DNA of 64,000 nt, taken from the NCBI RefSeq assembly GCF_037042905.1, contig NC_087245.1, positions 25,422,001 through 25,486,000 of the forward strand. Direction: 5' to 3'. The position numbers and the translations under genes are program-made. Of this stretch, positions 24,825-63,635 are shown in pieces (the first letter of the stretch is position 1; the number at the start of each line of letters is the position of its first letter). This DNA comes from Lytechinus pictus. Its lineage: Eukaryota. The notes under the pieces are model-generated. The model searched no databases. It saw only the letters and a program-made list of their open reading frames with translations, and was not told the DNA's origin.

Positions 24825-25326
24825 CAGTGCGTCCCACAAAAAAGGAAACCCGTTTTCAGAGACAGATAACACAATTATTGAATTTGTTTTGACTATAATT
24901 TTGATATTCATGGTAAGAGTAAAATCTCATCTTTAATATGAGACCAATATCCTAGCAAATCGTTCGTGCATGGCAGATTAAAAACAATAAATGCTGAGGG
25001 AATATGTATCCACTCATTTTAAGGATCAGTGAGAGAAACGTAATAAAAAAATACAAAAGAAATGTTAATAAGCCAATCGTCGAATAAGCACGGACGCCGT
25101 ATCACGAACCAATCTTGTTCAACTTTTCTGCGCAACCTGATTTCGACGTTAAAATTTCAAACTCGCCTTGCTCATTAATGCGTGAAGTGTTTGTCTCACA
25201 TTAGGTTATCAAAATATATAGAAAAATAATTGAATGGTATGATGATGTAAATGAAACATCATGATTCAGTTTCCTTTGAAGAAAAGAGACATAGGAATCC
25301 CAGTTTCCCTTTTCTGAGACGCACTG
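24825..25326. mobile_element. Tc1/mariner-type MITE, complete copy
   Basis: TA|CAGTGCGTCCCACAAAAAGGAAAC ... GTTTCCCTTTTCTGAGACGCACTG|TA. A second copy starts at 37005. Confidence 0.85.
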
Positions 25327-32077: not shown

Positions 32078-33080
32078 TTTGTCTCGCCCACCGGAGGTAA
32101 AGGCGAGACTTAGGGATCCAAATGTCGTCCATCGTCCGTCGTCCGTCCGTCGTCTGTCCGTCCGTCGTCCGTCCGTCACAAACCTTATGATACATAACTC
32201 CGCAACCGTAAGTCACTTTCAACCAAACCTGGATGGAAGATGGACTAGGGGGACCTGCATGTTATGCTGCAGTCTGAGGTCAGGTCACATGGTAAGGTCA
32301 AAGGTCATTTTCAAGTCAACGTTAAAGTTTACATGCAAGAATCTCTTATGACACCTAACTCCGCAACCGTAAGTCACTTTTCAACCAAACTTGGATGGTA
32401 GATGGACTTGGGGGACCTGCATGTTATGCTGCAGTCGGAGATCACATGGTAAAGTCAAAGGTCATTTTCAGGTCAATGTTAAAGTCTACATGCAAGACTC
32501 TCTTATGACACCTAACTCCGCAACCGTAAGTCACTTTTCAACCAAACTTGGATGGTAGATGGACTTGGGGGACCTGCATGTTATGCTGCAGTCGGAGGTC
32601 ACATAGTAAGGTCAAAGGTCACTTTCAGGTCAACGTTAAAGTTTACATCCAAGACTATCTCATGACAACTAACTTCGCAACCGCAAGTCACTTTTCACCC
32701 AAACTTGGATTGAAGATGTAGTTAGGAGACCTGCATGTCATGCTGCAATCTGAGGTCACATGGTAACCGTAAGGTCAAAGGTCATTTTCAGGTCAACGTT
32801 AAAGTTTACATGCAAGGCTCTCTTATGACACATTACTCTGCAACCGTAAGTCACTTTTCGACCAAACTTGGGTTGTAGGTGTACTTAGGAGACCTGCATG
32901 TTATTGTGTTCGGAGGTCACATGGTATGGTCAAAGTTCATTTTGAGGTCAACATTAAAGTTTATGGGCAAGACTCTTATGACAAGTGTTATTCCATCCCA
33001 GTCATTTCACAATTAAGTTTTGATACAATTCTGGTTATTTTCATAAGTGGGCGAGACACAAAATCGCTTATGTCTTGTTT
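32078..33080 (+). mobile_element. Non-autonomous Helentron/HINE-type (DINE-1/Tsp/pearl-like) element with internal tandem array
   Basis: T-rich insertion site; 5' subTIR TGTCTCGCCC with nearby inverted copy GGCGAGAC; (CGTC)n microsatellite at 32123-32178; five ~157-bp repeats; 3' subTIR GGGCGAGACA (33049-33058); short terminal hairpin then TT. Confidence 0.8.
32184..32985. repeat. Tandem array of ~157-bp units (5 copies plus a partial sixth)
   Basis: Units begin CTTATGA...TAACTCCGCAACCGTAAGTCACTTT at about 32184, 32345, 32502, 32659, 32822 and 32976. Confidence 0.95.
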
Positions 33081-37004: not shown

Positions 37005-37489
37005 CAGTGCGTCCCACAAAAAATGAAACCCGTTTTCGGAGATAGATTTCACAATATTATTAAATATGTTTTTACTAGTAATTTGACACTTATAATAAGA
37101 ATGGAATCTCATCTTTAATTTGAGACATGCAGCGTAGAAAATCATTCACGTATGGCAGATTACGAATAATAAAATTTGAAGCATATCAGAAACGATTTGC
37201 GCAGAAATTGAATCTGAATCTAGGGATCACTCAAAGAAATGCCTTTGAGCCAATCGTCGAATTAGCACCCTCGTCGTATCACGAACCAATCTAGTACAAT
37301 TTTCTGCGCAAACTGATTTCGACATTTAAATTTTTAACGCGTTTTGCTCATTAATGCATGAACTGTTCGTCTCATATTAGGTATCAAAATATAGAGGAAT
37401 AAATAACTTGTACGATGATGTAAATGAAATATCCTAATTAATTTGCCTTTGAAGAAAAAAGACATGGCAATCCCGATTTCCTTTTTTTT
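37005..37489. mobile_element. Tc1/mariner-type MITE, second copy with truncated right end
   Basis: TA|CAGTGCGTCCCACAAAAATGAAACCCGTTTTC; colinear with 24825-25326. Confidence 0.8.
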
Positions 37490-43323: not shown

Positions 43324-43485
43324 CTAGTTTTCTTGAACAACTGATCGTATCCAGGCAACGTAGAAACTGAGACGTGTGAAGAGGTTCGGAGTATAGGGGG
43401 CGCCACACATTGACCCACCGGAAACAGTTCCTATTATTGTCCACTTTCCATTCCTCTGTACCACCGCGGGGCCTCCAGAATCACC
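43324..43485 (-). CDS. Protease exon 19 (catalytic Ser and stop)
   Basis: [53 protein letters not shown]. Confidence 0.93.
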   Translation of the reverse strand, partial: GDSGGPAVVQRNGKWTIIGTVSGGSMCGAPYTPNLFTRLSFYVAWIRSVVQEN

Positions 43486-46400
43486 CTGCAAAAGATGGAA
43501 AGGGTGACTTATGAGGCGTTGCAATAAAAATTATTCTTCAATTCCAAATCATGCATAAGCCCCCAAATCATGCCAAAGTCATTTTGTTATTAAAAAAAAT
43601 TGATGTGGGGCCCGTTGCACAAAACTTTTGCCATAAAAAAACTCTGACAATTTTTTTGGCCAGAGTTTTTAATGTGTACTTTTCAATGGCATAATTTGGT
43701 TTGCCAGAGTTTTTATGGCAAAAGTTTTATGCAACGGGTCCATGATGTTCTTTTTTTTTGGTTAGCAGCTCTATATGGTAGAACACCAAGATGGTGGTAA
43801 TGCGCCACCCCGTATACATATCAGAAATAAATAAATAGATAAAATTTAAGTGCAACTTTCTTGTAACGCCAATTGTGCTTGATATAGGCCTTATTCTTCA
43901 TTTGCAATTATACAAAATTTCTTGCAATGCCCTAATTGGCCAAAGGCTGATTCAATTTTGCTAGCAAGCATAATTACAAGTACCTGCATGCATCAACAAA
44001 ACCACCCAAATATAGCACCGCCTATTTGAAGATTATCTAGTAAATCATTTAAAAAATCACAACAAGATAATAATAACTACATCGATATTAAGGAATAAGG
44101 CCATTTACTTTAATTAATAAATCTGTTATAATAAATGTACAGTTTGAAACTGACTGATATAATTATTGAAATTATATACAGTATCAATTCGGGTTGTTGA
44201 TAAATGTCTTACAATGAACTTTTATTACATGGCGTATATTTTGCCTAATTATCATTGGTTTTCTTGGATGGGCTTCCAACTTTGTACACCTTCTACCCTT
44301 CTTACTTTCCTAATGTATGATAATATTTATTTTGACTTTATACCTGCAGACAATAATTAATAAGGATATGATTTTATATTTTAATACACGCTATAACATA
44401 ACTATGATTAACGGCGGAAAGGGTGAAACAAATCAAAAAGGGCTTACGAATTCCTATATTCATAAGGCCATCTCCACTCGACCATGTTCAGGGGTTATTT
44501 ACCCCATTTTATTAATTTCATTATTAGAATGTATCACTTACGAGTTCATCTACGTATTCATAGATGTATTTTTTATAATACTTACGTAGCAAGCACTTTG
44601 CATTCCGCGCTCGTAGCCAGCGCATATTATTCGTTCTTCGAGGATTCTGCGACTGAAATAGCACCATCTATCACATGCTTGAGGAGGAATTAGGGGTAGT
44701 CGAACCTCCATCAACTTAATGCCATCGAAGCCTGGAGAGGAAAAGAGATGAAGCGAGAGAAAGAGAGAGAGAGAGAGGGAGATGGAGAAATGGGAGTTAA
44801 GTATCTTAGGAAGGGATGCTTATCGATTGTTAACATTATTTGCAATTGATCCTAAAATCAATCATGAGACCTTCAATTCTGCTTCCTGCAACAGAAAGTG
44901 TGAATTGATTTACCATAGGCTAAAATCGATCGATCACATGCAAATTTAGGATTGGTATTTTGCAATCGATTGAAATTACGTTCCTGATGGCATTAAGGAG
45001 TATTGGAAAATAATCTATGACTGAGATCAAACCGTAAAATCAATTCCGTTTCGTGATGGTGTAAAAGGCGGCACTGCGTTTCACAAAAATGCCCTTAAAC
45101 AACAACTAATAATCAGCGTAATGAATATATAGCTCAGAAGGTCTAAAAAGGAAACAAAAAACGCCTTTTCAATATGTATTAAAAATACATGTAAGATGAT
45201 GATGAAATAGCAACCCGCTTTTAAAAGACCATTTGACGCCTGGGGTAAAAGTGGGGACTGCTTTGCGACTAGTTTATAGATACAAAAGTAAAATAAGTAT
45301 CATTTTCTAAGTGCACCTCCTCTTTGTGGGGGATGGGGAAGAAGGGTGGGGGGAGGGGAGACACCTCCATATGAGTAATGGTACCATACCTCCTCCCGTA
45401 GCACCCCATCCGGTCACGGTCAGGTATTCGCCTGGATCCAGGATGATGTCTTCATCAGGGAGACACACTGGTTGCACCAGGGCGTTGTAGGTGAAAGGCT
45501 CCGTAACCCGGGCCAAAGCGACGTCGAATCCACCCTTCGAAGCGTTAGGGTGTCGAATCACGTGGCTTAACTCTCGGTACTGGATATCCGCATGGACGTC
45601 TTTACGATCAGTCACGCCAGCCAAGACGTATATTGATCCAACAGATTGTGAGCTGAAAAGAAATAAAAACGATTTTTGAGGAATATTGAATTATTTCCTT
45701 TTTTTTGTATGTAATACTCCAGTCCCCATTCCCGTACGGTGGCAATACGCCGAGTCGAAAACAGCCGTTTTATTCATGTTTATTCAATGTATCTGGTACA
45801 ATTTTTTTTAGAACGACTGTTTCGACTCGCCGTACGACCGCGGCAGGGGAAATGAGACTGAGGTATAAGGAGAAACAAGTCTGTATCGGTTGATATGAGT
45901 ATCATTTCCTGATTATAAAAAAGCCCAATCTTCTATCTATGTATTTATTCATGTATTATTATTATTTTTTTTTAAACTAAAATCGATAAAACTGATATTT
46001 ACATATCATTATACTATAATTTTGTCGGTGCCCCGAGGCGAATGGGAGGGGGTTGCAAAGTGTAATAGAACATTTTGGATGTCTGTCTGCCAGTGTAAAA
46101 TCTTACTGAAGTTTGTCGTCGTCAAGTCCTATCATAACTTCACTGAATTTTTTTTTAAATATATTGTTTTAGACTGCTGTTAGGAAACGTTCTATGATCA
46201 CAAAGAAGGGGCTGTAAACTTGAGAACGATTTAAATATCTTAATCTCCACCTTCTATAACTTGCCTTATACAATGAGCCGCAGTGACAATCCAATTTCTG
46301 TTGATAATTGACCCACCACAGTGAACCCCTTTCGTAGAGTTTGACTCTATAATGTATAAAAGAAAATCGAGGTTATAATTAATATTCGATATCATTTGCT

Positions 46401-49400
46401 CTCTCATTGATATTTAATATTTATTACATCTCACTTTTTGTTCACATAACCCTCTAAAGACCCTCGGATGAATCCACCCCTTCTCTCTCTCTCTCTCTCT
46501 CTCTCATAATCCCTCCCAGGTTCAGCCACACTTCTCCCCTGCTTTCCATTTTCATGTTCGTGCTATAATCATGTATGTAGACCAAAGATGTAGACTGCCT
46601 GGCTTTCTGGCACACCCCTCGTCATGTATCTCTATGTTGTCACACTCTTTCGCAGTGGCTAAATGAGCCCCAAAACTTGAGGGGACCAGACATGGCGTAT
46701 ATGGGGCAAAATTTCTATGAAGCTGCGATCGAGCAAATATTTTGACCTTTATGTTAAGAAAGAACGGAAAAGTAGTCATAACTATTAAACTTACTGGTTA
46801 GTAATACCTGCCAGGGCCATTCCCCTTTCTGATTTACGATTTGTCCTCCTAGTATCTTAGCTCTAGCCATAGGTTTGGTACCACAAGCTGAAGAAAGTGA
46901 AAATATAAAACTAAGATATGGAACGCAGGAAACATCTAGAATCAAATTCACGTCAATTGAAGTAACAAATAATCTCAGATGAAATAAAAATATGCATGTT
47001 TGCCAACCGCAGGGTTGGAATCAACATGCTTACAATAGAAAACAAACGCAACAATATTATTATTGTTCATACATATACATAAGAATGCGCATGAAACATA
47101 TATAGGAGACTTCAATTAGATGCATTTTCAAAAGGCGATTACGAATTAGAAGGTAGCAATCGGAACGGAGCTTGAATTTATAGAACTAGAGGACATTGCA
47201 CAATTAACTTATTTTTCTTGATACGTTGTTGACTGTCATTCGTATAAAGAGATTCTGACTAAAACAATGCTAAAAAATAACTTCCATTAACTTAAGATTA
47301 TAAAAATCATTACTGTACTTACACCTAACAGCCGGAAACACTGAAAAAAAGTTTGAGAATTTGGTATTTGTTTTTAGTCTTCTTTCTCCTTTGTCAGTGT
47401 AATACGATGGTATTTCGGTATTATTGGGAGGGGGCGGAGCAAGACAACATAAAAACAGGTCCCATTTCTTAGTTGAATAATAGGAGTAATAGAAAATAGC
47501 GCGACACATATATCTATTTTCATATTTCTATTCTTTCTTTTCTTCTGTTAAAACACCTATATCCTATTTTTTCACTATTTGAACAATTATAGGGAGGGGG
47601 TGGCTTGCCACTCCTGGGCATTTCATCTTTTACATTTAACATAAAGAAAATTACATTTGACTAAAGTGAGAGACATGATTGATATTCTTACTGCAATGTT
47701 CATCCGTTCCGTTGATGCAGTCATCTTTTCCATCGCAAACGAAATACGAACCATCACCCATCTCCGAACAGCTATCTGAATAATCATAATCAAGATGCGT
47801 ATACAGTGAATGATCCATTATCTGATCACAAAAGTGTATAATCAAAGTTAAAATGTTGTTTAAAATCAATAGTCTAACCATTACGGTTACTTTTTTAATT
47901 ATAATACATATAAGATTTATCATCATGTCTAGCACTCAATCTGTGGGGGTAATACAACTGAAGAGCCTTACAATTCCTTCTGTCACATACATACTCCCAG
48001 ACCTACAAATAAAATGTTCTTTTATGGTTTACCTTTAAAAAGAAACTGCAAACAAAAAGATATCTCACTTTTTTTTCTTTTCAGAAATCACACATTAATG
48101 AGTGATCGCTTATGTCACTAAAAAATGACGAGAAATTAATCTTCATTTTTTAACCGAAAATTTGAATCACTACATCCCCCTTCACTTTGTGAAAATGATA
48201 TTTTATTTGTTTCTCTACAAATACCATTGTCGTGTGACACATGGCGACCACGGAAATCCGTGATGGCGACAATCACTGTCTTCTTACCAGCCGTTTCTGT
48301 GCAAGAATCTTCATCTTCACCTCGTGGACAGTCTCGTATACCATTACAGAATCTTGATTTTGGTATGCACGACTGGTCTGACGTACATAGATCTTCTCCT
48401 TCTGGACATGGAGCTGAAATTGAATTTATTAGGATAAAAATCAAGAAGGCAAATCCCGGGAGGCAAATACACAAATTGATACCAAACTAAAAAGAAACCT
48501 TGGCGTTACACAGGAATCCAACAACGGATTTTTAAAAAGCTTATTAAAACTCGATGACAACATAGTTTATTATATAACGCTATAAAAATATCACTAAAAG
48601 GTTTCATCAAATCCAATGAAATATTTGGATGCCATCTATGCAAGATGAGCCAAATGAAACGCTGAATGGAGTAAAATTATATGGAATTATATCGAAATGT
48701 CGAATTTCGTTGGACAAAAAAATATCCCGAATTCTGAAGTTAAGCGTTCTTTAAAAAATGTTCGCGTTTTACTTATGCTATTTGCCATTTGCAGACGCTC
48801 GTGACTCGTGGGGGGGGGGGGCATAAATATGACATCATAAAATGATTTTTAATCAATTGAACAACGAGAGTAAATTGACGTTACACGACCGTGACTTCTC
48901 TTCGAAATTTTCTTCTTTTTTTTCTTTATTTTTTTTCTTTTGCTACTTAAAAAATAATAGGGGGAGGGCGGCCACGGCCCATCTTCCTGTATCGTCACCC
49001 CTAGCTACCTCTCATGTTTCCTTACATTGTGTAGTAATTGGATCGGTCATTGGCCGTCCTGTCGATGATTGGGTCGTGCATCCCTCCTCATCCTCACCAC
49101 TGGTACAGTCCGCGTTACCATCGCAACGAGCATCCACTGGGATGCACTCCCCGCTGCTGCACGATATACAGTCACTGGCATCGGGCATTTCTTCAATTAA
49201 AGAATAAAGAAAATATGCAGAATATGATCGGTATTTGCCAAAGCGACGTAGACAAACGCTCCCTTATAACACCGACATGTAAGTATTTGCTCATATCAAA
49301 ACAGTCATTTTTTTATTTATGATGATGATGATTAGTATTATCATCATCATCAAACTCATCAATATTAATTATTATAATACGGACATTTTTTCGGGTTATA

Positions 49401-52400
49401 TTCATAAACACGGGCAGTCGGTCCAAATATTAGATAAGTGTGATTCATAAAAGCAAACAAAGTAAAAACAAACAATACTTATTCATCGACTATAAAATTG
49501 TACCCTGTATATCATAACTAATTATGTATATCCATGAAATTTTTGTCATGTAAGTAGATAATAATTTTTCAGAGTGAAACTTAGATTTTAGTATGTTAAT
49601 GTCGTCAGGCTGACCTTGATTGTGATACTATCCCAAGTTGATCATACTGTCTGAGGCTTCGCCGAGGGTAGGGGAAGCAATGCAGGAAGAAGATATACAT
49701 ACCTGTCGGTTGAGTACAGTTCTTTTCATCTTCTCCTCGAACGCACTGCTTTACACCATCGCATAAGAGGCTCGGTCGTAAACATTTACCAGAGCAAGAC
49801 AACTCTCCAGTCGGGCAACTAGGCATTGTTTTATTCTCTGGGTAAATAAAAAATAAATTTGTAGAAAATGTTAAGTAAACGTTACTTAATTAATTCAAAC
49901 ATGGACGTGTAATTGGTGATGGTTGTGAAAGATGAGGACAAGAAAGAGGAGAGAGATGAAGGGGGGGGGGGTGCAGGGAATGTTGGTTCTGAAATAATGT
50001 GGTTTACAAAGAAATTTAATACAATAATTATATCCCATTTACTCACCTTTCTTTCTCCTTTTTCTCATTCTCATTATTTTCTTCTTCTACCTCCTCCTCC
50101 TTTTCTTCTTCTTTTCATCCTTTCCTTCTCCAACTTTCTATTCAGCAATGCAACGAATATTAGCAAATACCAAGACTAAGAGAAAATTTGTTTTAAAAGA
50201 GAAACGTTAAAAAAAAACATTTTTCTTTGTTGAAATAAATTGCTATCGGGTTAGGCGTTATATGGCAGGACCAGTTTTCACAAAACACTTACCACAGTTC
50301 ATCTCGTCATCTCCTTTGAAACAGTCTTTGTGTCCATTGCAAACCTTCTCTGCAGCCAGGCATTGGAAAGAGTCGCATTGATACAACTTATCGGCACACA
50401 CTGCGTGGCAATCAAAATGAATACAGACACTAAAGAGACTACGATGATATAATACTGACAATTCAAACAATTATGACAATGTTGATAAAAGTGCAAGTGT
50501 CATTGAGCCGACTACTACCATGTCACAATATTACTATCATGTGATATGTTCCTAGAGGCCTGCCTTCGCATCGGAGATCTCGCCCCTTCGCCTTGGCCTT
50601 GGAGGCCAGCTCGGAGGTCTGATATCGTTGGCCGTGACCTCGGGCCACCAGGCCTTGATCTTAAATGCCTTAACTCGTCGCTAGTATTGGAATACGATTT
50701 CCAGCCTTGAGCACTCTCAACACTGTTAATAAGAAAATAATCAATCGCCATCATTGTAATTGTGATTGTCATTGTGATCATCATCATTATCATAATCGTC
50801 ATCGGAATATTCAAATAAGTGTTTAAAAGTGAAGAAATATGTAGTTTTTTAACAGAACCAGTGAGAACTCCTGATAAGTTTCGAGTTAGCATGTTTAACA
50901 TGTTTAAGTATTTGGCATTATTCATAATGGTTTGTTCTCGTTATTGGTTAAAGAGTGATTGAAAGTGGAAAATAACATTGAATTGAATAGTAATAGTAAA
51001 TATTTGAGAACAACGAATTGAAAATTACCTGGACAATCTTGCTCGTCTGAACCGTCACCACATGTATTGTTTCCGTCACACCTCTGCCAATACGGGATAC
51101 ACACTCCTGAATTCTGACATTCAAACTGCCAACTCAGGCACGCTGAAAATTGGATATTATTTTGATAAAAAATGTAATAGAGCCATAACACAATCAATTA
51201 GAAAAATTGCTGTCAATGAATAAAATATCCTTTTCTACAAGAAATGTGCAAAAAATAAATCAAAATCCGTATAAAGGCTTCAAATGAATGATTATAAAAT
51301 AAGCTTATCTTAATATGTTTAACAAGAAATTGAAAAATAAATGATTTCTAATGACATTTTGAAAAATGGAAGAAATGTATCAATATTGGGTTGGCGAAAA
51401 GACAGTAGACAATGGTAGAGGATACAGGAATATGAATTCCCTTTTACATGTTCATCTTCTTTTTAGGACATCACTTAATTACAAGGTGTTCTATTTCGAG
51501 GGGCGTAATGTGTGCATTATTACTTTTACAATTAATAAATGAGCTGCATTTTTCCCAGAATATCTACCAATTCTTTTACCTGTGAATCAAATGAGTTACT
51601 TTGAGCCACTTACAGCAATTAGTTTCGTCTTCTCCACCGGGGCAATGAGGGTAATCATCACAGACGTTATTCCGGTAAATGCAGGGCCCATCGCCAGGAC
51701 ACTGCCACTTCTCTCCCGTACATTCTGTAACGAAATGAATTGGTGTTAGCATCTACGGTGTTGTATGTTGGGATCATAATCGTGTAAGAATGAGCGCCGA
51801 AACATGCATTTGGATTTTGGAATTGATACTACGCACATATAATCAATAGCTGAACACCGAAAATGTCCATTATATTACATTAAGAACTGTCCTTCGAAAT
51901 TTATGTTTTTTGTCACAGATAGATTCGGGTGATAAAGATTTTGTTTTCAAAACAAGGTGCAAGAAAGTTCATATTTTTAGAAATTTTATTTTTATGCACT
52001 GCTACAGCTTTACAATTAGATTTACAGATGTTTTCTTTATTTTGGGGTAGACTTTGAAAGGAAAAAAAATGATGCAGATAAAGTTTAAGCTGTTATTAAG
52101 TAGGGACATGACATCTCAATGATATGAATAATTGGAGTAATGCAATTCGGATTACCTCAATTCAAAACACTATCCGAGATGTAATTTGATATGTATGATT
52201 TAAATCACCTGGATTAGAAAAAAAAACCAAATAACAAACAAAGAAAAACAAACAAATGGGAATGAAGTCATTCAAATATACGAATGATTAAGAATGGCAC
52301 TGAAATATATTGTAATGCAAAAATGATTTACCACAGTTTCGTTCGTCTGTGTAATCTGTGCAGTCATTTACTCCATCACAAAGGAATACATTGTTAATTG

Positions 52401-55400
52401 TGAAGATTCCATTGTCACATTCAAAATCTGTATAAAAAGACAAAATGTATTACTTATACCCACGTCATTTGATTTATTCATTTTATAATAATGTACTTGG
52501 GCATGTTCTTTGTGATATCAAGGATAAAGAAAGAAATGAGGGAATAGGGAGGGGTAGAGAAGGGGGGGGGGTAATATTAAAAAGAGAGAAAGTGATCGAT
52601 AAGGCGAGGAAGACAAGCTCATTTGCTCTGCAGTTGCAAATCCGTTACCGTTACCCCATAAACGATGTCCAGATGCTCCTTTTCTGCATACGACCACAGA
52701 TAAAATATAGTTCTCTCTCAATTATATAGTTAAACTTTGGTCGTTTTTTATCAATGCATTGTCATATTTCAATTTCTGTCCTCGAATTCAGTGTTTTGAT
52801 TAAAATACTCTCTAAATAGTGAAAAAAAGTAATCAATCATGTCATAGCTTACCACAATTATGTTCGTCATCCGAGCAGTCTACTACATTGTCACATACAC
52901 GTAAACGTTTAAGACATCTACCATCGGAACATTTGAACAGAAAGGGACTCGAACATGCTTTAAAGAAAAAAAAATTAGTGAATAATTACATGTATGATGA
53001 TCAAGATCTACGCTCTCACATTTTTAACCAACCAGTTAGCTTGGTTCATTGATGAATCTACCAACCATTGGTCTGTTGGTGAAATAATTAAATTTGATTT
53101 CACTTTAACAATAAAAGGGAAATAAGTTTTGCTTTTAGAAAGATTCAGGAAGTAAATCAAGGTTATTAATCACTAATTAGACGGTTGGACTTTCACGGGT
53201 CTTTCATGCCTAGTGATACACTACGGAACAGTATACAGGCACACCAACGAAACCGAACCCAAATCGATCGAAAATATTCCATATGAAATATAGTAACAGC
53301 TTTGATCAACATGGAGCTAACTTCGTAAGTGTGACTGTTGAAATTAGGAAATTCATTCTATTAATGCCATGGACATCCGTGAACTCCATTAAAATCTCTC
53401 TCTCAAGCAGCTGCTATGAGTGGTTTGGAACGAATGTGCTGCAGTCTGGCAAGTAAATCAACCTATCGAATCAGAACTGAGGGCGTTTGCGAAATATTTA
53501 AATCGATGTCTACTGTCACAGTAAAAATATGAAGCAATGTCTTCCACGGAAACTTAAAGACAACGCAATACTTTGAATTCAAAAGGAATATAGTAGTCAT
53601 TTGTTTATATCGATTTCTATTTATTTATTTATCTATTTATATAAAATTTATTTCTCGCTTGTCATATTTTGAGGAGCCCACAATATACAAGCTTTGCTTT
53701 TTAGTGGGATTCTCCATTTTCACAAATTGTAAATCACAAATCCTTTACACAAGATTATTTTGTATGTAACTTTCTTATAACATGTCTTTTTCAAGTTGAT
53801 TTTATGACCTTGGTATATTTTTTATGATGTCGACTTGTTATGATTGTATTTATTTGATTTATATTTTGTTGAAAATGAAATAAATGAAATGAAATGAAAT
53901 GAAAATATCTACATGTATGGTTTGGCGTCCGCGCATAAAATTTCCGGATGTTTCTTTTTCTGTTGGTAGTTCTAGGCTCACTCCGAAGTCGCTCAAAATG
54001 GTTTCCACCACATATCAATGCGCCCTCTTCTGTTTGTGGCGCAACCACTGATGAAAATTATGCGATACGACTATCCTCGACTCACCACAGCCTATCTCGT
54101 CGTTTCCAGAGATACATTTAGAGCTGCCATCACAAGCATGGGCTTCGCCGTAGCACTCTTGAACGTACTTGCATGGTTTCTCTCCGGCATCGCATTCAAT
54201 GACGGCATCTTTTAAAGAGAGAAAAATAGAACCACTCTCCAACTACAATGAACCATATTATCATTGATACCATCAAAGCCCATTTAAAGTTTAGGCGAAG
54301 GGTCCATAATTATGATGTGAATTAAACTTGAGTATCATCTAATATTTCAATGTTACTCTTCGGCCCTTGTAAGGGGGTGCCCCCTCTCTCCATCTTACTT
54401 TTTGTTTAGAGTATACCACTGGATGTAGTCTTCAAGGTCGAGGTAAAAACGCATATTATCTCGGCTGTTCTCGGATATCACTGTTGTTACAGCTTCTGAT
54501 ATTCGTCAACCCCGCCTTATAATAAAATATTTCACTGAAACAGATCATCTTCAATCACTTTGCTTCACATGACATATCGACATAATATCGACCGCATTTT
54601 ACAGGAATTATGTGCGAATCTTTGCCTCTTGTCATTCAATAGAAACAATGATGACCTTTATATCATTGTTATGTTTTGGCTTGTCAGAATTTTTGGTGAA
54701 AAATGCGACCACTTTTTAAATGATAGATATATATTTTTTATCTGTGCGACAATAATGTTAGGTCACTCGGCAGAGAATGATATGAAACCAGTTTGAAAAT
54801 GTCATATTAACATAACAGAGTTATTTGTTATATATTTATATATAAGATATAAAACAGCTTACCACTTTCTGGTACAGCCCAGATTTTCGCATGGAAACCA
54901 GATTCAGCCGTGACGCTGTCACTGAATAACTGTACCCACAATGCATTGCCCGATGATGTTATGACAGGTGGTAGGTCATATCCGCTGAATGAAGCAATGT
55001 AATCAATTTCCGTTTGGTTCGAACTGCCTATCCTCACCAGGTCATAGTCTTTGTAAATAGAATGATGAAATTATATAAGATTATATTTCACCTGCTAAGG
55101 ATGATGCTGTATGTTAATTGGTCAACATGAATCACCTGATAAATTGTAGCTTTGTCTTTCAGTGACGAGGTGTTGTTTTGTAGGGCTTATTAAAACCCCT
55201 TTTTAAAACCTGTGAAGGAACAAAGATGGCGGTATTAACATTCATTAAAACATACGAGAGAACGTAGCGATCCAGCGAGAAGATTTGTAGTTCTCACCAG
55301 TATTTTGAAGTTACCAGTTGGTATACAATAAAATTTGCATTGGATTGCCGCTTGACATGAGTGCGAGCGGCGAACCAACTGAGCAAGGAGAGAATTCTAT

Positions 55401-58400
55401 TCATAAAAAATGTAAATAGCATATTAGCATTTAAAACCCACACTCGGTATAAAAACGGACACACTTGCAAACAAATTGTACGTCTTATCAAGTGAAACGT
55501 AGCGATTTGGACCCAAATACGATATACAATAAATTATAACAGTGAAAGTGGTCATGTGGGCGATTGTGCGTCGCCACCGAGCTCGGAAAGCGTCTCTCAA
55601 TAGGATTCTAGTGAAGAGACATTTGTTGCCTTGCTACTGGTATAACTTTTGAGAATTTCAAACATATCATTTTTATATCAATTTCTGCGAGTAGGGGCTG
55701 GGATGTAAAGCAGAATCCGTATTTTTTCTTGTTCTTTCTCTTTTTTTTCAGTTTTGCCACCTCTAACTTTTTTTTTGCTCGCCTATCAACGAGGGGGCGG
55801 GGGGCATCATTCTCTGTACACCCGAGCTATGTAAGCGTTCCATTTACATTATAACCGTAAGTAAACCCAGTCCGAACTATACTTACTATATTCTGTTCGT
55901 AAATCTACGAATTCTATCCGGACCCGATATTCATCAGGAGCGATGGCAACCCAATACTGTCTGCTCATATCCTCATAATTATCCGGATAACCGGGCGATG
56001 TTAGCTCGGTTATTTGTTCTGTCTTGAGATAAACTGTTGAAATAACAAAGACAAACATAGTATACTTGTTTTTTTTTCTTGACCTCTTACCGGAATTTGA
56101 AAACTCGGTTGATCTAATTAAAATATCATTATATCATGGTCGTACCCAACGCCACACGTATGTGGGTCATGCTTAAACTTGATCGAAATTCGTTTAATTG
56201 GTTCAGGAACGATGTATATATTTTTTGGCTATACTTTTACAGCATGCATAACAAAATATGAATTGATATAATATGATGTTACATTGATGATAATAATAAT
56301 ACATGATAGGAACTATTAAGCATAAACAAAATAGGTTTCAAATGCAGAATCCCTTAAAAAAAATCGTAGGTAAGTAATTCGTTGGACTAAAACATGGCTC
56401 GAAATAAGCATTCATAAATACCAGAATAAAAACTGAATAAAAAAAATAACAATGCCCCTATAGCATATGAAGATATACACACCATTTGCAAATAAAATCA
56501 AGAACATCATCGTGCACCTAAATTATGATGATTACTTTAAAGAAATATTATTCACAGTATTCAAAGAGCAACAATTCCTTCATAAATTATTATTCTTGAA
56601 TGATAAAATATTGTTACAAATTCGTATTTAAAGGTTGTGAATTCCAAATGTTAGGCCATTATAAACGTTTCATTATAAACGTCAACTTTAAAATACTGCT
56701 ACTAATACAATATACTATTTCTATTTGATCCGCCATTACTATTACCATGGCTTATATGTGGCTAATTCACGGGCTGATTTTATAACACCAAAATAAACTG
56801 TCATTGTGCACTGAAAGTTGCGTTAATGTATGAATTCATGACCCTTCGAGATTTTTTAAGTAGATTTTTAATGAAAGGAAGATGAAAGTGAAATTCGAAC
56901 TGTTCATTTTATCTATGTGCATGAAAAAGTACTATTATATACTAGATATGTGTTGACTGTTTTTTTTACTCTTGTTTTGTGCACACATGTTGACCCTGAA
57001 CTTACCTTTATTCAAGCTGTCTCATATTTCCGAACCAAAATATTAACATGTTAGCCGATTTCAATGTAGCGTGTTTCCTTACCGGAATAAGAGATTTGTC
57101 GTTATTTCTTTATAAAAAAGGATACTCCCCAAAACAAGGAACACCCATAAAAAAGTAAATAGTACAATATCCACAGTTCTCAACGTTGTCGAAGTTTTAA
57201 TGGTATATTTTAAAGAGTGAAGCATAGCATTTATTGCTGTTTTTTCAATGGTTTGCTTAGTCATCCAATATATTAAAATCATTCCGTTGTGTTTGATAAA
57301 ATAATTCAATTGATGACGACACATTTTGTAATATGTTTATTATCATATCTAAAACAATAAGAAACGGGTCCCTGGGTCGGAAGCACGGTGAATAAAGACT
57401 ATGCTTTTTTTTGAGCGAAAAAGAAATGAGATGTCTGTTGTGCATTAAAGAAGGGAGTATCATACATGGAAAAGCGAATAAAAATAAGAATGCAAATCAT
57501 GAATTAACATAAACCAATACGCTTTTTTTTCGTGTTCTCTCCTTTTTAATACCGCCTATATCGTGATATAGGCATATCCGAAATGCCATTCCCAATTTTG
57601 AAATGCATCATTTGTTTTATATAAAACCTTACATGCAAATGTTCTTACTTGCTTCTTTAATTAGATCTGGTTCGTCATTTTCCTCTCCTGTATTTGAGTT
57701 TACCCTGGTTCCTGAATGAATACAAGTTAATGACATACACTACTCAAAAAAAGTTAAGGACCACTTTTTAAAACGTACATAAAGATTTTATACAAGGTGT
57801 TTTATTTCTGGAAATACCTCAGTACAACTGTCCTAAATGTCCTTAAACACGCTGTAATCAATTTCACGCATGGGTGGTTTCAGTTGTTGCACAATGTCTC
57901 TCGCATCACTGCACATCCTGAAAAGTGGGCCCCGAGGGGTATCAGCTACCGACATGAAGTGGTAAAAACGAATGTCTGAGTGTCTTTCAGGCAGTTCAGT
58001 AACGAGTGTGACCACCTCCTGCAGCAATAACGGCTTCACAGCGCTGTCTCATGGAGCTGATGAGGCGATTGATGTCTCTGACGTCCAGTGCATCCCATGC
58101 AGCCTCCAGAGCCACACCCAGCTGCTGCAGTCCAAGTGGATGGGCTTCGAGCTGCTCGAGACTCCTCCCCATCATGTCCCAGACGTGCTCTATCGGGTTT
58201 AAGTCCGGGGACCTCGCTGGCCACTCCATACGCTCAATCCCCTGGCCCTCAAGGAACTCGGTCACCACCCTAGCTCGGTGGGCACGGGCATTGTCATCCA
58301 TGAAAATGATGTTTTGTCCCACATTTTCTGCAAATGGCACCACTATAGGTTCAAGGACCTCATCCCTGTACCTCACTCATGTCATTGCTCCCCCTGGGAC

Positions 58401-61400
58401 CACGTAGAGACGAGTACGGTTGGCGTAGGTGATGCCTCCCCACACCATGACGCTGCCTCCCCCATAACGGTCATGTTCTGCAATACAGGGGTCTGCAAAT
58501 CTCTCTCCTGGTCGCCTCCAGACTCTCGAACGTCCATCATTGTGGTCAAGGGAAAATCTGCTCTCATCTGTGAACAGAACTCTACGCCATTGCTGTCTGG
58601 TCCATCTGACATGCTCCCGGGCCCAGTTGAGACGAATTCTTCTGTGAGCAGGGGTGAGTGGGACACACTGAGCTGGCCGTCTGGCATGCATATTGGCTCT
58701 GTGAAGTCGGTTACGGATTGTTTGAGTGGAAACAATCACTCCAGTTGCTGCAGCGAAGTCATTGTTGAGGCGGCGTGCACTGTGAAAGCGGTTGCGGAGG
58801 CTGAGATTCGTCAAGTAGCGATCATCTCTAGGGGTTGTCGAAACTGGTCGGCCACTGCGGGGTCTCTCGGAGTATAGCCCTGTCTCTCGGTGTCTTTGAT
58901 TTGCTCTGCTAATGACACTGTGTGACACGCCCATCATTCTGGCTACTCTTCGCTGACTGAGGCCAGCTTCCAGCATCCCTAGGGCTCTGGCTACATCTGT
59001 TTCACTTAGGTGGTGTCTTGGCATTGCTGTTGTAGGCAAGTTGGAAGCTGGCCTCAGTCAGCGAAGAGTAGCCAGAATGATGGGCGTGTCACACAGTGTC
59101 ATTAGCAGAGCAAATCAAAGACACCGAGAGACAGGGCTATACTCCGAGAGACCCCGCAGTGGCCGACCAGTTTCGACAACCCCTAGAGATGATCGCTACT
59201 TGACGAATCTCAGCCTCCGCAACCGCTTTCACAGTGCACGCCGCCTCAACAATGACTTCGCTGCAGCAACTGGAGTGATTGTTTCCACTCAAACAATCCG
59301 TAACCGACTTCACAGAGCCAATATGCATGCCAGACGGCCAGCTCAGTGTGTCCCACTCACCCCTGCTCACAGAAGAATTCGTCTCAACTGGGCCCGGGAG
59401 CATGTCAGATGGACCAGACAGCAATGGCGTAGAGTTCTGTTCACAGATGAGAGCAGATTTTCCCTTGACCACAATGATGGACGTTCGAGAGTCTGGAGGC
59501 GACCAGGAGAGAGATTTGCAGACCCCTGTATTGCAGAACATGACCGTTATGGGGGAGGCAGCGTCATGGTGTGGGGAGGCATCACCTACGCCAACCGTAC
59601 TCGTCTCTACGTGGTCCCAGGGGGAGCAATGACAGGAGTGAGGTACAGGGATGAGGTCCTTGAACCTATAGTGGTGCCATTTGCAGAAAATGTGGGACAA
59701 AACATCATTTTCATGGATGACAATGCCCGTGCCCACCGAGCTAGGGTGGTGACCGAGTTCCTCGAGGGCCAGGGGATTGAGCGTATGGAGTGGCCAGCGA
59801 GGTCCCCGGACTTAAACCCGATAGAGCACGTCTGGGACATGATGGGGAGGAGTCTCGAGCAGCTCGAAGCCCATCCACTTGGACTGCAGCAGCTGGGTGT
59901 GGCTCTGGAGGCTGCATGGGATGCACTGGACGTCAGAGACATCAATCGCCTCATCAGCTCCATGAGACAGCGCTGTGAAGCCGTTATTGCTGCAGGAGGT
60001 GGTCACACTCGTTACTGAACTGCCTGAAAGACACTCAGACATTCGTTTTTACCACTTCATGTCGGTAGCTGATACCCCTCGGGGCCCACTTTTCAGGATG
60101 TGCAGTGATGCGAGAGACATTGTGCAACAACTGAAACCACCCATGCGTGAAATTGATTACAGCGTGTTTAAGGACATTTAGGACAGTTGTACTGAGGTAT
60201 TTCCAGAAATAAAACACCTTGTATAAAATCTTTATGTACGTTTTAAAAAGTGGTCCTTAACTTTTTTTGAGTAGTGTATTAAACATCAGTCGAATTAAAA
60301 AAATAATTCAAAAAAACAAATTCAAACTTGAGGCCAGTTGTGGAAAGATTTGTAATCGAACACAACTGAACAGAAAATTAAAACATATCTTGGTTTTCAT
60401 TTATTTGAGATTGCGAATATATGACTTTGGCTTATTTGTGTTTAACGCAACGCTTTCTACAAGAAGCGTCTACATGTTACAAATTCCCGGATTTCAATAA
60501 AGTGCCATGACATAGGCGGATCCAGCTTTTGGCGAAAGGGGGGAGGGGGCGCACTGCCGAGCGGCGCACATATTTTTGCACTTCACCGGCGCCATAAAAG
60601 AAAATGTTGAAAAAGGGGTAAAGTCTGACCCTGTCAAATGCTCTTTTAAAAATGTAGGATTTCCAGTCATGCCATTTTGCATGACCACACGCAGATAATA
60701 TTTTCGGGGGGGGGGGGCAAGACTCGAAAATTTGGTGCACATCTCACATTTGCACATTTTTCATAGTTTTCATGAAATGTTAAGGAAAAAAATTGTTTTT
60801 CACAACAGCAGATCGCGAATATGCCCTTCCTCCTTGCTGCGTACGACCATTCCCTGAAGTCCACTTAAACATATCTCATTATAACAGAAATATACATCAA
60901 TTTAAACATATATTCTTTCTAAAACATATATAGAGAGAGATTGAAAAACTTATTAAAGAAAGAAACAAACAAAAGTAACACAAATTATGCATGTTATGTG
61001 CGATTTCAAAATCTCGTGTATTAACCCTTTTATTGCGATGAGGCCAATACTTTTGTATATTAATAGAGATACAAGTTTTTTTTTACTATATGTATATATA
61101 TATATATACACAGGGGCGTCGTTCCTTTTTTTAAGATTTGGGGGGCAAAATCATGAATCAACTTTCCAAAGGAGCTCGATATCACACAAAACAAACAAAC
61201 TCACACAAACACACACACTTATGCATATATATATATATATATTTATTTATCTGACTCATGAGATAGAAACACATATCTCACCAACAAATTAATGCGAGCG
61301 CGAAGCGCGAGCTGAAATTTTTTAGTATACTGACCTGAAAACAGGAAAAGGTGCCTGTTTAGGACTGTTTGTAGTAACTCATGAGGAGGATACATATCTC

Positions 61401-63121
61401 ACTACACAGATAATGCGAGTGCCGAGGGTGAGCTGAAATTTCTTTATATTCTGACCAGAAAGCTTGATATTCTATGCATTTTTGGTACCAATGATTAAGA
61501 TGAGTATCTAAAAAAAACAATAGATGCGAGCGCGAAGCGCGAGCTTAAAATTTTGATCTGAAAAAAAAGACAATTTAATGGACGTTTGTAATAAAGAACA
61601 AGATTATATCCAGCAAAAGATTATTGCAAATCGAAGCGGGAGTTCTTTTGACGTTTAGTCCTGAAAAAGGGACATTCTATTCACCTATTTAATCATGAAA
61701 AGTATGGGGTTTCTACAGAAATGATGCGAGCGCGAACTGGTTGCGTAATTATACACTCCCGATACTAGCAACGGGTTTTAGCAAAGTTTTAACCAGGTGG
61801 TGCTGATTATTCTTGTCCGGCGCCGATTTAGATTTAGGTGGAGCTGATTATTTTTGATCGGCGCCGGTTAAGACTCAGGCAGCGCCGATTTATAAACATA
61901 TGTATGGCGCTGATTATTCTTGACCAGCCCCGATTTAGATATAGGTGGCGCTGATTATCCTTGATCGGCGCCGGTAACGAACTCAGGCAGCGCCAATTTT
62001 TCTTTTCCGGCGCCGATTTATAACCAGATGGCGCCGTTTATTCTTGCCCGGCGCCGATTTAGATTTAGGTGGAGCTGATTATTCTTGATCGGCGCCGGTT
62101 AAGACTCAGGCAGCGCCGATTTATAAACAAATAATAGGGGGGCGCGCGCCCCCTGCGCCACCCCCCTGGATCCGCCACTGCATGACTTAATTAAAGATTT
62201 AGAATCTAATATTTAAAAGTAATATCCTGCAAATTCCCCCTATATTAACCATGTTTGCCCCCTTAAAATGTCTGCCTCATTATGCCACTGTGTCGAAACA
62301 GTGTAATAGATAAGGAAGTACATTTCTATTTAGAAATGTATTTAGTCCTCAGTGTTGAAGTATATAACACAAGAAAGCTTAGGGATGTATTAACATTTGC
62401 TCGATTTAATCGGGTGTCAATTATTTTATAATTTGTTGATCAACAGCTGGTGTTGCAAATGACTTTTCCATAATTATTCGGTTTCTCAAACTGATTTCGC
62501 ACTATAACAAAACCGATTTCAAAACTGGTGTTGATCGATCCAACATATATTAAAAATAGTGCAATCGTTTGGTTCAGACTGTATAGTATGTTCCCTTTGC
62601 CAGAGAGTGAAGAGGTCCTACTTTAGGGACAAGGGGTCGTTTCAGAATGAGCCAAAGGTATGGTAAATCTGCCATTATGGATAATTTCCATGGTAACCAT
62701 GGTAACAATGCAGGGCTAAGCAGACAATCGCAATCAAGGTTCCCATGCATGGTAGTTACAACGTTGTCATAGATGCCATAGTTGTCTGGATTAGACCAAG
62801 TTAGATAAGACCAAATTAAAAGTATAGTAAACCAAGTGGCAATTACTATTGTTATATACATGGTAGATGAATATCTTACCGATTATAACCCCCACGATTA
62901 TTGCAATGGTTACCATGGTGATGAAGAAGACTGATAATCCGATCTTACATTCCCTGGATTGACATCGGTGGCCATTGTCCCCACCATTTCCCTTCTCTTC
63001 CACGAACTGCATCATCTCCCCAGAACTGAAGATTTGGAAGAGAAAGAAATGGGATGGAAAAGGAAAAATGTAATGAAGGAGGAAGAAATAATATATATAT
63101 ATATATATATATAAATTTATG

Positions 63122-63163
<42 letters not shown>

Positions 63164-63635
63164 AAGAGAGGGAGGGGTGGGGAGACGATGGGATGGACAG
63201 AGTTTCGGGAGAAGGATAGAGAAAGATAATGTGTACGTGAGAGGCGGGCGGAAGGGGTGCAGGGTCAAAATCAAACTTAGAATTGGATCATTAAAATTGA
63301 AAATAAAAATGTTGCTATTTTTGTTAATAATAATTACATCCAAGAAATGCCGAAACAAAATGCAGGTTGGTCAAAGCATCCGAAATTCTAGTCAACAATA
63401 TCATATCTCTCGCGGAAAATACTGTATCCCATACAAGATGAAAGAGATACTGGAATGTCTTTAGCATTTAGTTGATAAAGTTATTCCATTATTGAAAATA
63501 TAAATAACAATGCATCATACGTCACGAAAAAGCAATGTGATAAATAAGCACGCCAATGGAGGCGTTAGCAATGTCACAATACACAAGCTAAAAAATTAGT
63601 TTTTCTTACCTTTCCACATTTTCATTATCTGCCAT
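43324..63635 (-). CDS. Type II transmembrane serine protease: TM - CUB - 10x LDLa - S1 protease, 19 coding exons, 805 aa
   Basis: Minus-strand exons: 63610-63635, 62880-63025, 55887-56033, 54863-55048, 54086-54208, 52853-52957, 52332-52427, 51614-51724, 51029-51142, 50293-50400, 49703-49837, 49026-49190, 48288-48413, 47692-47775, 46795-46887, 46265-46346, 45390-45652, 44586-44731, 43324-43485. They total 2418 nt, all phases are compatible and there is no internal stop. Motifs K|ILGG, TAAHC, DVAL, GDSGGP. Confidence 0.92.
43608..43741. mobile_element. Harbinger-like MITE in the last intron
   Basis: Inverted termini GGGCCCGTTGCACAAAACTTTTGCCATAAAA / TTTTATGGCAAAAGTTTTATGCAACGGGTCC. Confidence 0.75.
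44586..44731 (-). CDS. Protease exon 18 (S1 pocket residue 189)
   Basis: [49 protein letters not shown]; not in the ORF track. Confidence 0.92.
45390..45652 (-). CDS. Protease exon 17 (catalytic Asp)
   Basis: ...[19 protein letters not shown]...VQPVCLP...VTGWGATGG. Confidence 0.93.
46265..46346 (-). CDS. Protease exon 16 (catalytic His), with GC donor
   Basis: [27 protein letters not shown]; ends AAG|GCAAGT. Confidence 0.9.
46795..46887 (-). CDS. Protease exon 15 (activation site)
   Basis: [37 protein letters not shown] donor. Confidence 0.92.
47692..47775 (-). CDS. Protease exon 14 (LDLa 10, truncated four-cysteine form)
   Basis: [28 protein letters not shown]. Confidence 0.85.
48288..48413 (-). 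CDS. Protease exon 13 (LDLa 9)
   Basis: [36 protein letters not shown]. Confidence 0.92.
49026..49190 (-). CDS. Protease exon 12 (LDLa 8 plus Ser/Thr-rich linker)
   Basis: [54 protein letters not shown]. Confidence 0.88.
49703..49837 (-). CDS. Protease exon 11 (LDLa 7)
   Basis: [38 protein letters not shown]. Confidence 0.9.
50293..50400 (-). CDS. Protease exon 10 (LDLa 6)
   Basis: [35 protein letters not shown]. Confidence 0.92.
51029..51142 (-). CDS. Protease exon 9 (LDLa 5)
   Basis: [37 protein letters not shown]. Confidence 0.92.
51614..51724 (-). CDS. Protease exon 8 (LDLa 4)
   Basis: [36 protein letters not shown]; not in the ORF track. Confidence 0.9.
52332..52427 (-). CDS. Protease exon 7 (LDLa 3, four-cysteine form)
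   Basis: [32 protein letters not shown]; not in the ORF track. Confidence 0.88.
52853..52957 (-). CDS. Protease exon 6 (LDLa 2)
   Basis: [34 protein letters not shown]; not in the ORF track. Confidence 0.9.
53670..53905 (+). mobile_element. LINE (L2/CR1-like) 3' end remnant
   Basis: Stem-loop GGAGCCCAC...GTGGGATTCTCC, T-rich UTR, AATAAA and a (TGAAA)n tail. Confidence 0.5.
54086..54208 (-). CDS. Protease exon 5 (LDLa 1)
   Basis: [36 protein letters not shown]. Confidence 0.9.
54863..55048 (-). CDS. Protease exon 4 (CUB, C-terminal half)
   Basis: NYDLVRIG...[37 protein letters not shown]. Confidence 0.9.
55887..56033 (-). CDS. Protease exon 3 (CUB, N-terminal half)
   Basis: [10 protein letters not shown]...[29 protein letters not shown] donor. 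Confidence 0.9.
57996..59024 (-). pseudogene. Tc1-like DD34E transposase, full-length frame (342 codons) with one nonsense mutation
   Basis: ATG at 59024 (MPRHHLSE...), motifs [18 protein letters not shown] and [14 protein letters not shown]>TGA at 58379-58377, after which the frame continues unchanged. Confidence 0.92.
59041..60018 (+). pseudogene. Tc1-like DD34E transposase, open frame but 5'-truncated (first 17 codons missing)
   Basis: 325 open codons starting at a junction TTG; D..D-34-E spacing intact. Confidence 0.9.
60511..62180. mobile_element. Composite non-autonomous DNA element with internal repeats
   Basis: CATGA|CATAGGCGGATCCAG ... CTGGATCCGCCACTG|CATGA. Internal GCGAGCGCGAAGCGCGAGC motifs and a GGCGCCG-rich repeat block at 61795-62130. 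Confidence 0.7.
62880..63025 (-). CDS. Protease exon 2 (cytoplasmic tail and transmembrane helix)
   Basis: [12 protein letters not shown]...[28 protein letters not shown] acceptor, G|GTAAG donor. Confidence 0.85.
63091..63162. repeat. Compound (TA)n(GT)n(TA)n microsatellite
   Basis: Read directly from the sequence. Confidence 0.9.
63610..63635 (-). CDS. Protease exon 1 (start, MADNENVE)
   Basis: CAACATGG start context; donor AAG|GTAAGA; phase 2 matches exon 2. Confidence 0.75.

Follow-up and report, generated by a model that had tools for sequence, protein, structure and literature searches.

A Tc1 palindrome in a Lytechinus pictus intron, probably one of many transposed 3'-3' fold-back derivatives of a very young family

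Transposons in which an inverted copy of one end stands in for the other are known from Rhodnius, Drosophila and Aedes. In the Rhodnius prolixus mariners Rpmar17 and Rpmar49 the 5' part is replaced by the inverted 3' part, giving very long TIRs; 227 rearranged Rpmar17 copies with mostly different breakpoints are reported, and the route proposed for them is a dimer followed by central deletion (PMC4678618). In the Drosophila MITEs Dromar7, Dromar11, Dromar28 and Dromar36 one end, always the same, is replaced by the inverted other, and the products were amplified by transposition (PMC4161770). The Goblin MITE, derived from Ozma in Aedes aegypti, has inverted right subterminal sequence and an inverted junction microhomology, for which gap-repair template switching was proposed (PMC3814204). 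The mariner papers term the origin of these rearrangements elusive. In plants, Mu killer, the Ac killers and the Antirrhinum Stabiliser are inverted transposon duplications that a flanking gene can transcribe as a hairpin (PMC3440606; bioRxiv 2020.01.07.897926; bioRxiv 2024.06.24.600476). As these reports describe them, they are rare single loci with the 5' (promoter) end duplicated, for which siRNAs and trans repression were demonstrated.

The palindrome at 57738-60276 of the 64,000-nucleotide stretch analysed here (the window) resembles the Rpmar elements in the exchange of one parent end for an inverted copy of the other. The Rpmar copies reported are DD34D mariners, nearly all of them non-coding and shorter than 1000 bp, and just two copies are near full length, whereas the Lytechinus family is a DD34E Tc1 whose derivatives are mostly longer than the parent and often coding, and which retains many intact parents. 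The Dromar elements described are short MITEs with a duplicated 5' end, whereas here the 3' end is duplicated together with the ORF; and Goblin is reported as 213 bp long, with one junction in 15 copies, against kilobase arms and at least 28 junctions in the Lytechinus family. The end swap and transposition after the rearrangement are both present, but the short, non-coding form of a MITE is absent (2539 bp, against 1896 bp for the parent): the element works like the long-TIR end-replacement derivatives but is no MITE. Unlike the plant killers, the Lytechinus palindromes duplicate the 3' end, make up half of a family and are at most candidate silencers. At 57738-60276 there is a duplication inside a transcribed gene, as in Mu killer, but no 5' TIR or promoter end, only the 83%-similar 3' TIR. 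The main texts of the open-access literature yielded no animal Tc1 family with coding palindromes longer than the parent, and no animal counterpart of Mu killer. We conclude with good confidence that the element is one transposed 3'-3' fold-back derivative of a very young Tc1 family, probably produced by recurrent template-switch repair and moving as a unit.

The palindrome and its intron

The host is a minus-strand gene for a CUB/LDLa/trypsin membrane protease, with the palindrome inside intron 2 and ending 26 nt upstream of the exon-3 acceptor. Exons 2-5 join in frame, and in run X1, where the gene is expressed and spliced, RNA contigs show the joints 57649>56033 and 55887>55048. The preliminary description had placed the element in intron 2 of an intact gene; the position stands, and intactness extends only to the CUB, LDLa and trypsin exons found.

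63610..63635, minus strand: inferred first coding exon (from sequence only)
62880..63025, minus strand: exon 2, a hydrophobic, transmembrane-like segment (sequence)
57649..57711, minus strand: exon 3 (X1 RNA contigs and sequence)
54863..56033, minus strand: exons 4 and 5, CUB domain (spliced in X1 RNA contigs)
43330..52985, minus strand: LDLa-repeat and trypsin-domain exons, found individually and not joined (sequence)

The element is made up as follows.

57736..57737: left TA target-site duplication (mirror comparison)
57738..57932, minus strand: parental 3' TIR (about 195 bp), forming the left end (parent comparison)
57801..57806, minus strand: AATAAA inside the left TIR, on the host-sense strand (sequence)
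57738..58972, minus strand: left arm, parent positions 1896 to 662 (parent alignment)
57996..59024, minus strand: full 342-codon Tc1 DD34E transposase frame, ATG at 59024, with a premature TGA at 58379 (215 aa)
58973..59041, minus strand: 69-bp spacer, parent 661 to 593, the start-codon region and 17 nt of 5' UTR
59042..59043, plus strand: fold-back junction where parent p591 meets p662 at a 2-nt inverted microhomology (common to three loci)
59042..60276, plus strand: right arm, parent 662-1896, terminating in the second 3' TIR (mirror comparison)
60277..60278: right TA target-site duplication (mirror comparison)

Mirror comparison bore out the palindrome as it had been described: two 1235-bp arms around the spacer, TA outside both ends and unrelated sequence beyond them. 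It also bore out the count of only two differences, since 57738-58972 mirrors 60276-59042 exactly except at 58251/59763 and 58379/59635. In the window the longest inverted pair (1247 nt) is this same element, and the next longest has only 91 nt. The further claim that the duplication is very young does not follow: because the whole family is only about 0.17% diverged from its majority sequence and the junction occurs at two further loci, the arm mismatches give no date, and the duplication event need not have occurred at this site. The parental 3' and 5' TIRs, of 194 bp, share their first 33 nt and are 83% identical overall. The AATAAA is a possible premature poly(A) signal for the host transcript.

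The arm sequence encodes DDE_3 and HTH_Tnp_Tc3_2 domains, and 34 residues separate the second D from the E. The marks of Tc1 (DD34E) within IS630-Tc1-mariner are thus all present: the DDE with D34E spacing, an N-terminal HTH, TIRs and a TA duplication. The arms had been said to carry almost the whole transposase each, which holds and can be refined: left arm and spacer together contain the entire ORF with its ATG, oriented as the host gene, and the right arm has an open frame of 324 codons without the first 18. The TGA is private to this copy and breaks its ORF, which is unbroken (342 aa) in the sibling copies L085 and L086.

Palindromes across the family

The genome search suggested in the preliminary description found the parent, a 1896-bp DD34E Tc1 with about 280 copies, and the p591/p662 junction at three loci whose flanks differ and each of which has TA at either end. 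The rearranged form therefore moves as a unit, as had been supposed. Family termini number 273+275 genome-wide, and the ends comprise 424 of 3' type against 134 of 5' type, from which it follows that about 145 of some 279 copies are 3'-3' palindromes; these counts and the three junction loci rule out a unique locus. An unbiased sample, consisting of the 54 elements to which the first 100 listed termini belong (C1, C2 and the start of C3), held 16 ordinary copies, 36 complete palindromes in 23 junction classes and 2 one-ended elements. No 5'-5' pair occurred among the first 100 of the 134 listed 5' ends. Ordinary intact parents coexist with the palindromes, and TA lies on both sides at 57 of 60 family loci examined. 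Most palindromic derivatives exceed the parent in length (range 1.4-3.1 kb; the longest arms measure about 1.37 kb). At least one intact ORF is present in 23 of 38, and four have two. The commonest class, p283/p606, occupies 27 loci and is 2905 bp long with an ATG in both arms. In RNA run X23 the element continues into a flank whose counterpart in the assembly is an empty TA, so family insertions are polymorphic; a search for an empty-site haplotype of 57738-60276 matched only the locus itself.

Long perfect palindromes are a familiar artefact of long reads, and an assembly or library fold-back could imitate the element. Such an origin is hardly credible here: the flanks of 57738-60276 are continuous and unrelated with a clean TA at either end, the same junction lies on three contigs and another at 27 loci, arms carry their own substitutions, and later insertions are nested in a single arm (L046, L069). 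We reject it on junction recurrence and private substitutions.

The loci read contain at least 28 junction classes. Of the 17 cleanly scored junctions, 11 have microhomology of at least 3 nt, where 5% would be expected (p about 1e-10); if unscored junctions are counted as misses, the figure is 11 of 24. Pairing is in weak excess inside the loop compared with outside (60/187 vs 40/181, p=0.035), and the junction of our element shows weak additional pairing of this kind at 6 of the next 9 positions. In each of the six palindromes whose arms carry the minority marker 1479C, across three junction classes, it is found on both arms, and therefore a single template lies behind both. One p1107 junction (L042) is without the 1479C found in its four class-mates, which requires recurrence or conversion. 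The marker 1241T is confined to one arm in L038 and in L055 but lies on both in L082; some markers thus appear to have been copied between arms afterwards, and arm sharing may therefore also stem from conversion.

We infer template switching from these junctions, but head-to-head dimers, from neighbouring insertions or sister-chromatid transposition, would end in the same structure after repeated deletions across their unstable centre. This route has in its favour that 23 of the 28 classes are formally nested in five founders, and that junctions p3, p7 and p16 retain almost the entire 5' end. We nevertheless regard it as unlikely. None of the 73 family loci read is an intact dimer, at least 5 of the 28 classes are not derivable from another by central deletion, and palindromes occur on both marker backgrounds, 1479G and 1479C. 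Moreover, every class pairs an arm that extends to p716 or beyond with one that ends no earlier than p521 (permutation p=0.008 and 0.03, with thresholds set post hoc on data already seen), which hints at a 5'-side break. A stricter rule, that the short arm never extends to the 5' UTR, is broken by L105 (p357/p521).

Under template-switch repair, the process would start when a break linked to transposition hits the 5' part of a copy, or when gap repair at the donor site is aborted. A template switch at a short inverted microhomology would heal the break, with the same parent's 3' part copied again where the 5' end had been, and the product, with two intact 3' TIRs, could then be moved by transposase from the many intact copies. 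Such fold-backs would have formed many times, and 3'-3' forms would have accumulated, perhaps because the Lytechinus transposase prefers 3' ends as its substrate. Mos1 offers the analogy: as reported, an engineered element with two right ends was 26-fold more active in vitro than the natural arrangement, and one with two left ends 50-fold less (PMC4505599), but that construct is artificial, with 28-bp repeats, whereas the outer 33 nt of the Lytechinus Tc1 are identical at both ends. The copy at 57738-60276 has lost its own ORF through the nonsense change, and host transcription of this allele would yield a 1.2-kb intronic hairpin as a by-product rather than a dedicated silencer.

Family RNA and silencing

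Family RNA and its editing were read in one stranded RNA run, X23, against reference DNA from other individuals. The RNA is 13:1 antisense to the transposase (sense reads 7%), and reads run across element ends into several differing flanks. A private variant at 58913, carried by 43 of 67 antisense reads, is absent from all copies in the assembly, and one or few loci therefore dominate the family RNA. The 73 changed places include 45 A>G and 10 T>C, and 51 of 496 family reads fall below 95% identity, which fits A-to-I editing of dsRNA. Twelve of 13 listed A>G changes are absent from the DNA-type runs X9 and X12. Among the 40 of 110 rows listed, all 13 A>G sites lie in the TIR (57795-57908) and none in the well-covered ORF, where weaker editing is possible beyond the sites listed. 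Of the 7 adenines that would face C in a duplex of 5' and 3' TIR, 5 are among these sites, against 8 of 54 others (p=0.004), a pattern that favours fold-back of ordinary copies on their own TIRs. We rejected misplacement of 5'-TIR reads on the 3' TIR as the source of the A>G changes: both TIRs have A at 8 of the 13 sites, and only 2 of 32 reads carry the 5'-TIR variant at 57892, compared with 26 of 32 at neighbouring 57893. Signs of the editing expected in the preliminary description are thus present in family RNA, but the best-supported sites are in the TIR and the host gene has no reads in this run.

On the snap-back model for C. elegans Tc1, read-through RNA folds on its TIRs into dsRNA. 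Editing of transposons in that species, and the long TIRs of Tc6, are on record (PMC4408787; PMC3814204). Folding and editing of this kind fit the X23 signal, for which ordinary copies suffice and no kilobase palindrome is needed.

The preliminary description had raised the possibility that this intronic locus is a Mu-killer-like silencer of its own family. On that view it would be a dominant trigger, active in every tissue with protease-gene expression. A transposase-coding inverted duplication does sit inside a host gene spliced in X1, and in-silico folding of RNA read through it gives the perfect long stem foreseen, of about 1.2 kb. A special role is nonetheless very improbable. The family has about 145 similar copies, three of them with this junction; host exons have zero reads in X23 despite the family RNA; and the p591/p662 junction is absent among the X23 reads above the listing threshold, where the X1 and X23 animals may or may not carry this allele. 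The arms (parent p662-1896) do not include the promoter region duplicated in the Mu killer and Ac killers described (PMC3440606; bioRxiv 2020.01.07.897926), and intronic hairpins are reported to be usually ADAR substrates in C. elegans (PMC4408787). If transcribed, the hairpin would be one among many possible dsRNA sources of the family.

Silencing might instead be collective: the roughly 145 palindromes, through host read-through or inward-facing TIR promoters, would give diced or edited hairpin RNA that damps the family. The stem folded in silico, the antisense RNA, the A>G changes and their absence from DNA-type runs, and the entry of reads into several flanks agree with this. Sleeping Beauty TIRs are reported to drive convergent transcription and RNAi (PMC3343047), and the accounts of Tam3 Stabiliser loci and Ac killers give the same principle in plants (bioRxiv 2024.06.24.600476; bioRxiv 2020.01.07.897926). 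Yet the listed editing is confined to the TIR, as expected of ordinary copies; hairpin transcripts should yield equal sense and antisense, against the 7% seen, with the caveat that long perfect or hyper-edited stems can be lost from libraries and alignments; one or few loci dominate; and CpG decay is equal in palindromic (26/6590) and ordinary copies (6/1628), so that extra methylation-type decay in palindromes was rejected, on small counts. Together with the polymorphic insertions, equal decay leaves no repression apparent from these indirect signs. We hold collective self-silencing to be possible but doubtful. It is compatible with fold-back formation and transposition, and 57738-60276 would be one minor contributor.

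Meaning for the family

The single locus is ordinary within its family; the family itself lends itself well to study as a natural experiment. It has dozens of very young junctions beside near-identical intact parents, so that the route of repair, the bias towards the 3' end and the advantage in transposition can be tested directly. The about 145 near-perfect kilobase palindromes are likely to be fragile sites.

If palindromes feed small RNAs, they would be an animal counterpart of the plant killer loci, acting as a population instead of a single locus. A stronger and rather improbable reading is that a Tc1 newly arrived in this animal turns itself at high rate into kilobase palindromes, some of them holding two complete head-to-head transposase genes, and that these out-transpose the parent while feeding hairpin RNA that shuts the family down. 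If such feedback were real, the family would display a built-in end to a DNA-transposon invasion, caught under way, and an origin route for long-TIR (foldback-type) elements.

The palindrome and its host gene

The preliminary description of a palindrome with a short spacer, two arm differences, outer TA dinucleotides and unrelated flanks agrees with our mirror comparison. No other inverted repeat in the 64-kb window comes close in length to the palindrome (57738-60276, 2539 bp), and both of its ends are bordered outside by TA, with no relation between left and right flanks. Its arm codes for a Tc1-type transposase with DD34E spacing. The left-arm frame is ended at codon 216 by a private change at 58379, and the first 18 codons are missing from the right arm.

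Features of the window
57738-58972 and 59042-60276: palindrome arms, exact mirrors except at pairs 58251/59763 and 58379/59635
between the arms: 69-bp spacer
ATG at 59024, minus strand: complete 342-codon transposase frame, left arm and spacer
minus strand: host protease gene, exons 2-5 joined in frame, then CUB, LDLa and trypsin exons
4524-5681 (33-bp) and 32184-32974 (157-bp): tandem arrays, from the repeat search
24858-25313 and 37040-37486: diverged dispersed repeat pair
60516-62180: short-repeat cluster with G+C-rich inverted ends, in host intron 2

The dispersed pair and the short-repeat cluster are probably other non-autonomous elements. The earlier placement of the palindrome in intron 2, a numbering that includes an inferred first exon, stands, given the in-frame exons 2-5 and two exon joints confirmed by RNA contigs of run X1. 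Because the insertion lies 26 nt before the exon-3 acceptor (gap 57712-57737) and carries a host-strand AATAAA (57801-57806), it may disturb host splicing or cut host transcripts short.

A family rich in mobile palindromes

Searching the genome for parents and for the same junction, as had been proposed, recovered a 1896-bp parent (parent positions are prefixed p). Its TIRs of 194 bp are 83% alike overall and identical over the outer 33 nt, its ORF spans p610-1638, and its 5' UTR has tandem repeats with a period of about 166. The parent has about three such units (p72-621; L060:372-921), in which both the start-codon context and the inner TIR motif recur; L031, L044, L042 and L052 show loss of units.

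Genome-wide, we counted 273 forward and 275 reverse family termini. End-specific patterns gave 134 5'-type against 424 3'-type ends, from which we estimate that some 145 of some 279 copies carry a 3' end on both sides, a figure slightly too low because a few 5'-type matches fall inside palindromes. Among the first 100 of the 134 listed 5' ends we saw no 5'-5' form, since none has a second 5' end within 17 kb. Copies depart by about 0.17% from the family majority sequence, and an internal stop is absent from 118 of the 123 protein matches scored.

The first 100 listed termini (contigs C1, C2, C3 up to 33.4 Mb) belong to 54 elements, all of them analysed: 16 ordinary 5'-3' copies, 36 complete palindromes of the 3'-3' type, which fall into 23 junction classes, and two one-ended copies. 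At least one ORF was intact in 23 of the 38 rearranged copies (two in four of them) and in 10 of the 16 ordinary ones. Adding 25 loci picked from earlier matches, a biased set, brought the total to 28 classes, with element lengths of 1.4-3.1 kb. Two complete head-to-head ORFs occur in palindromes L032, L033, L051, L075, L088 and L089.

The window junction joins p591 to p662 via a 2-nt inverted microhomology. Three loci share it, each on its own contig and with different flanks; the two siblings of the window copy have intact transposase ORFs. The most frequent class (p283 joined to p606) occurs 27 times. Palindromes of this family thus transpose as units, as had been suspected for the window copy, and the duplication therefore need not have taken place in the host intron.

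Other elements of about 0.6-4 kb are nested in young copies (L046:2515-3099, L069:2719-3303, L034:2181-2776, L094, L098, L063), so other families are active too. Two independent insertions (L046, L069) hit one and the same TTTAA site of the 3' TIR, which was also struck in L094. Private substitutions on both arms of one copy, absent from its class-mates (L082, L048, L070, L080, L093, L103), suggest arm-to-arm gene conversion.

Contigs of X9 and X12, DNA-type runs with two other organism labels, match window 57742-59041 nearly base for base, differing only at the window copy's private change, and leave the host gene uncovered there. Among the protein matches P0121-P0133, one from the sea spider Nymphon striatum shows 90.5% identity across 337 aa. 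A candidate explanation is that the element recently passed horizontally between marine animals; contamination, mislabelling or incomplete contigs could instead lie behind these matches.

Formation of the palindromes

Inverted microhomology of 3-7 nt occurs at 11 of 17 cleanly scored junctions, against 5% expected (11/24 if the seven unscored classes, with filler or nearby changes, are taken as misses). Six palindromes, from three classes, carry the minority marker 1479C in their arms, and each of the six has it on both, as expected if a single template was copied into both arms. Deletion across head-to-head dimers, proposed for Rpmar17 in the accessible text of PMC4678618, might also produce such structures: 23 of the 28 classes are formally derivable from another by central deletion, but five are not. 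Junction microhomology, the shared marker and these five classes lead us to favour template switching, proposed for Goblin (accessible text of PMC3814204): a transposition-linked break in a copy would be repaired with a template switch, yielding a 3'-3' palindrome. The picture is not clean, because L042 has its class-mates' junction without 1479C and because, for a small number of changes, later conversion from one arm to the other seems likely. Pairing inside the loop is weakly above pairing outside it. By analogy, the 3'-only bias may come from an end preference like that of Mos1 (accessible text of PMC4505599).

RNA signal and killer loci

Reads making up about 6% of the stranded raw RNA run X23 were compared with three stretches: host exons 3-5, the left arm and the spacer. 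Host exons 3-5 had zero reads in this sample. Element reads were 13:1 for the strand antisense to the transposase, an orientation confirmed by the changes on this strand running from A to G. The 73 changed places include 45 A>G and 10 T>C. Among the changes listed, which cover 40 of 110 rows, all 13 A>G sites fall in the TIR and affect 38-88% of reads; they are over-represented at adenines that would face C in a 5'TIR/3'TIR duplex (5/7 versus 8/54). The pattern is consistent with ordinary copies whose read-through RNA folds on its own TIRs and is edited by ADAR. Some changes could be alleles, run and assembly being from different individuals. Long-stem palindrome RNA can be lost from libraries, and the X23 data neither show nor exclude it. 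The assembly lacks one variant that 43 of 67 antisense reads carry, and where X23 reads connect the element to a certain flank, the assembly has an empty TA site; family insertions therefore vary between individuals. CpG decay was no different in palindromic copies than in ordinary ones.

In structure and behaviour the palindromes agree with mariner end-replacement derivatives of Rhodnius and Drosophila, as the accessible text of PMC4678618 and PMC4161770 describes them. Unlike those, they exceed the parent in size and retain ORFs, and they form about half of a family in which many intact parents coexist. In the accessible parts of their sources, Mu killer and Ac killers (PMC3440606; bioRxiv 2020.01.07.897926), and likewise Stabiliser loci (bioRxiv 2024.06.24.600476), have a duplicated 5' end, and it is siRNA and trans-repression that define them. 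The window palindrome, unlike Mu killer or the Ac killers, does not duplicate its 5' end, and siRNA and trans-repression are putative here; we therefore do not file it as a killer locus. With palindromes so common in the family, the Mu-killer-like role first proposed for this locus is highly improbable. A search of the open-access literature found no closer animal case.

The palindrome is thus real and ordinary within its own family, and the family offers a testable model for the origin of long-TIR elements and for whether such elements feed back on their parent.
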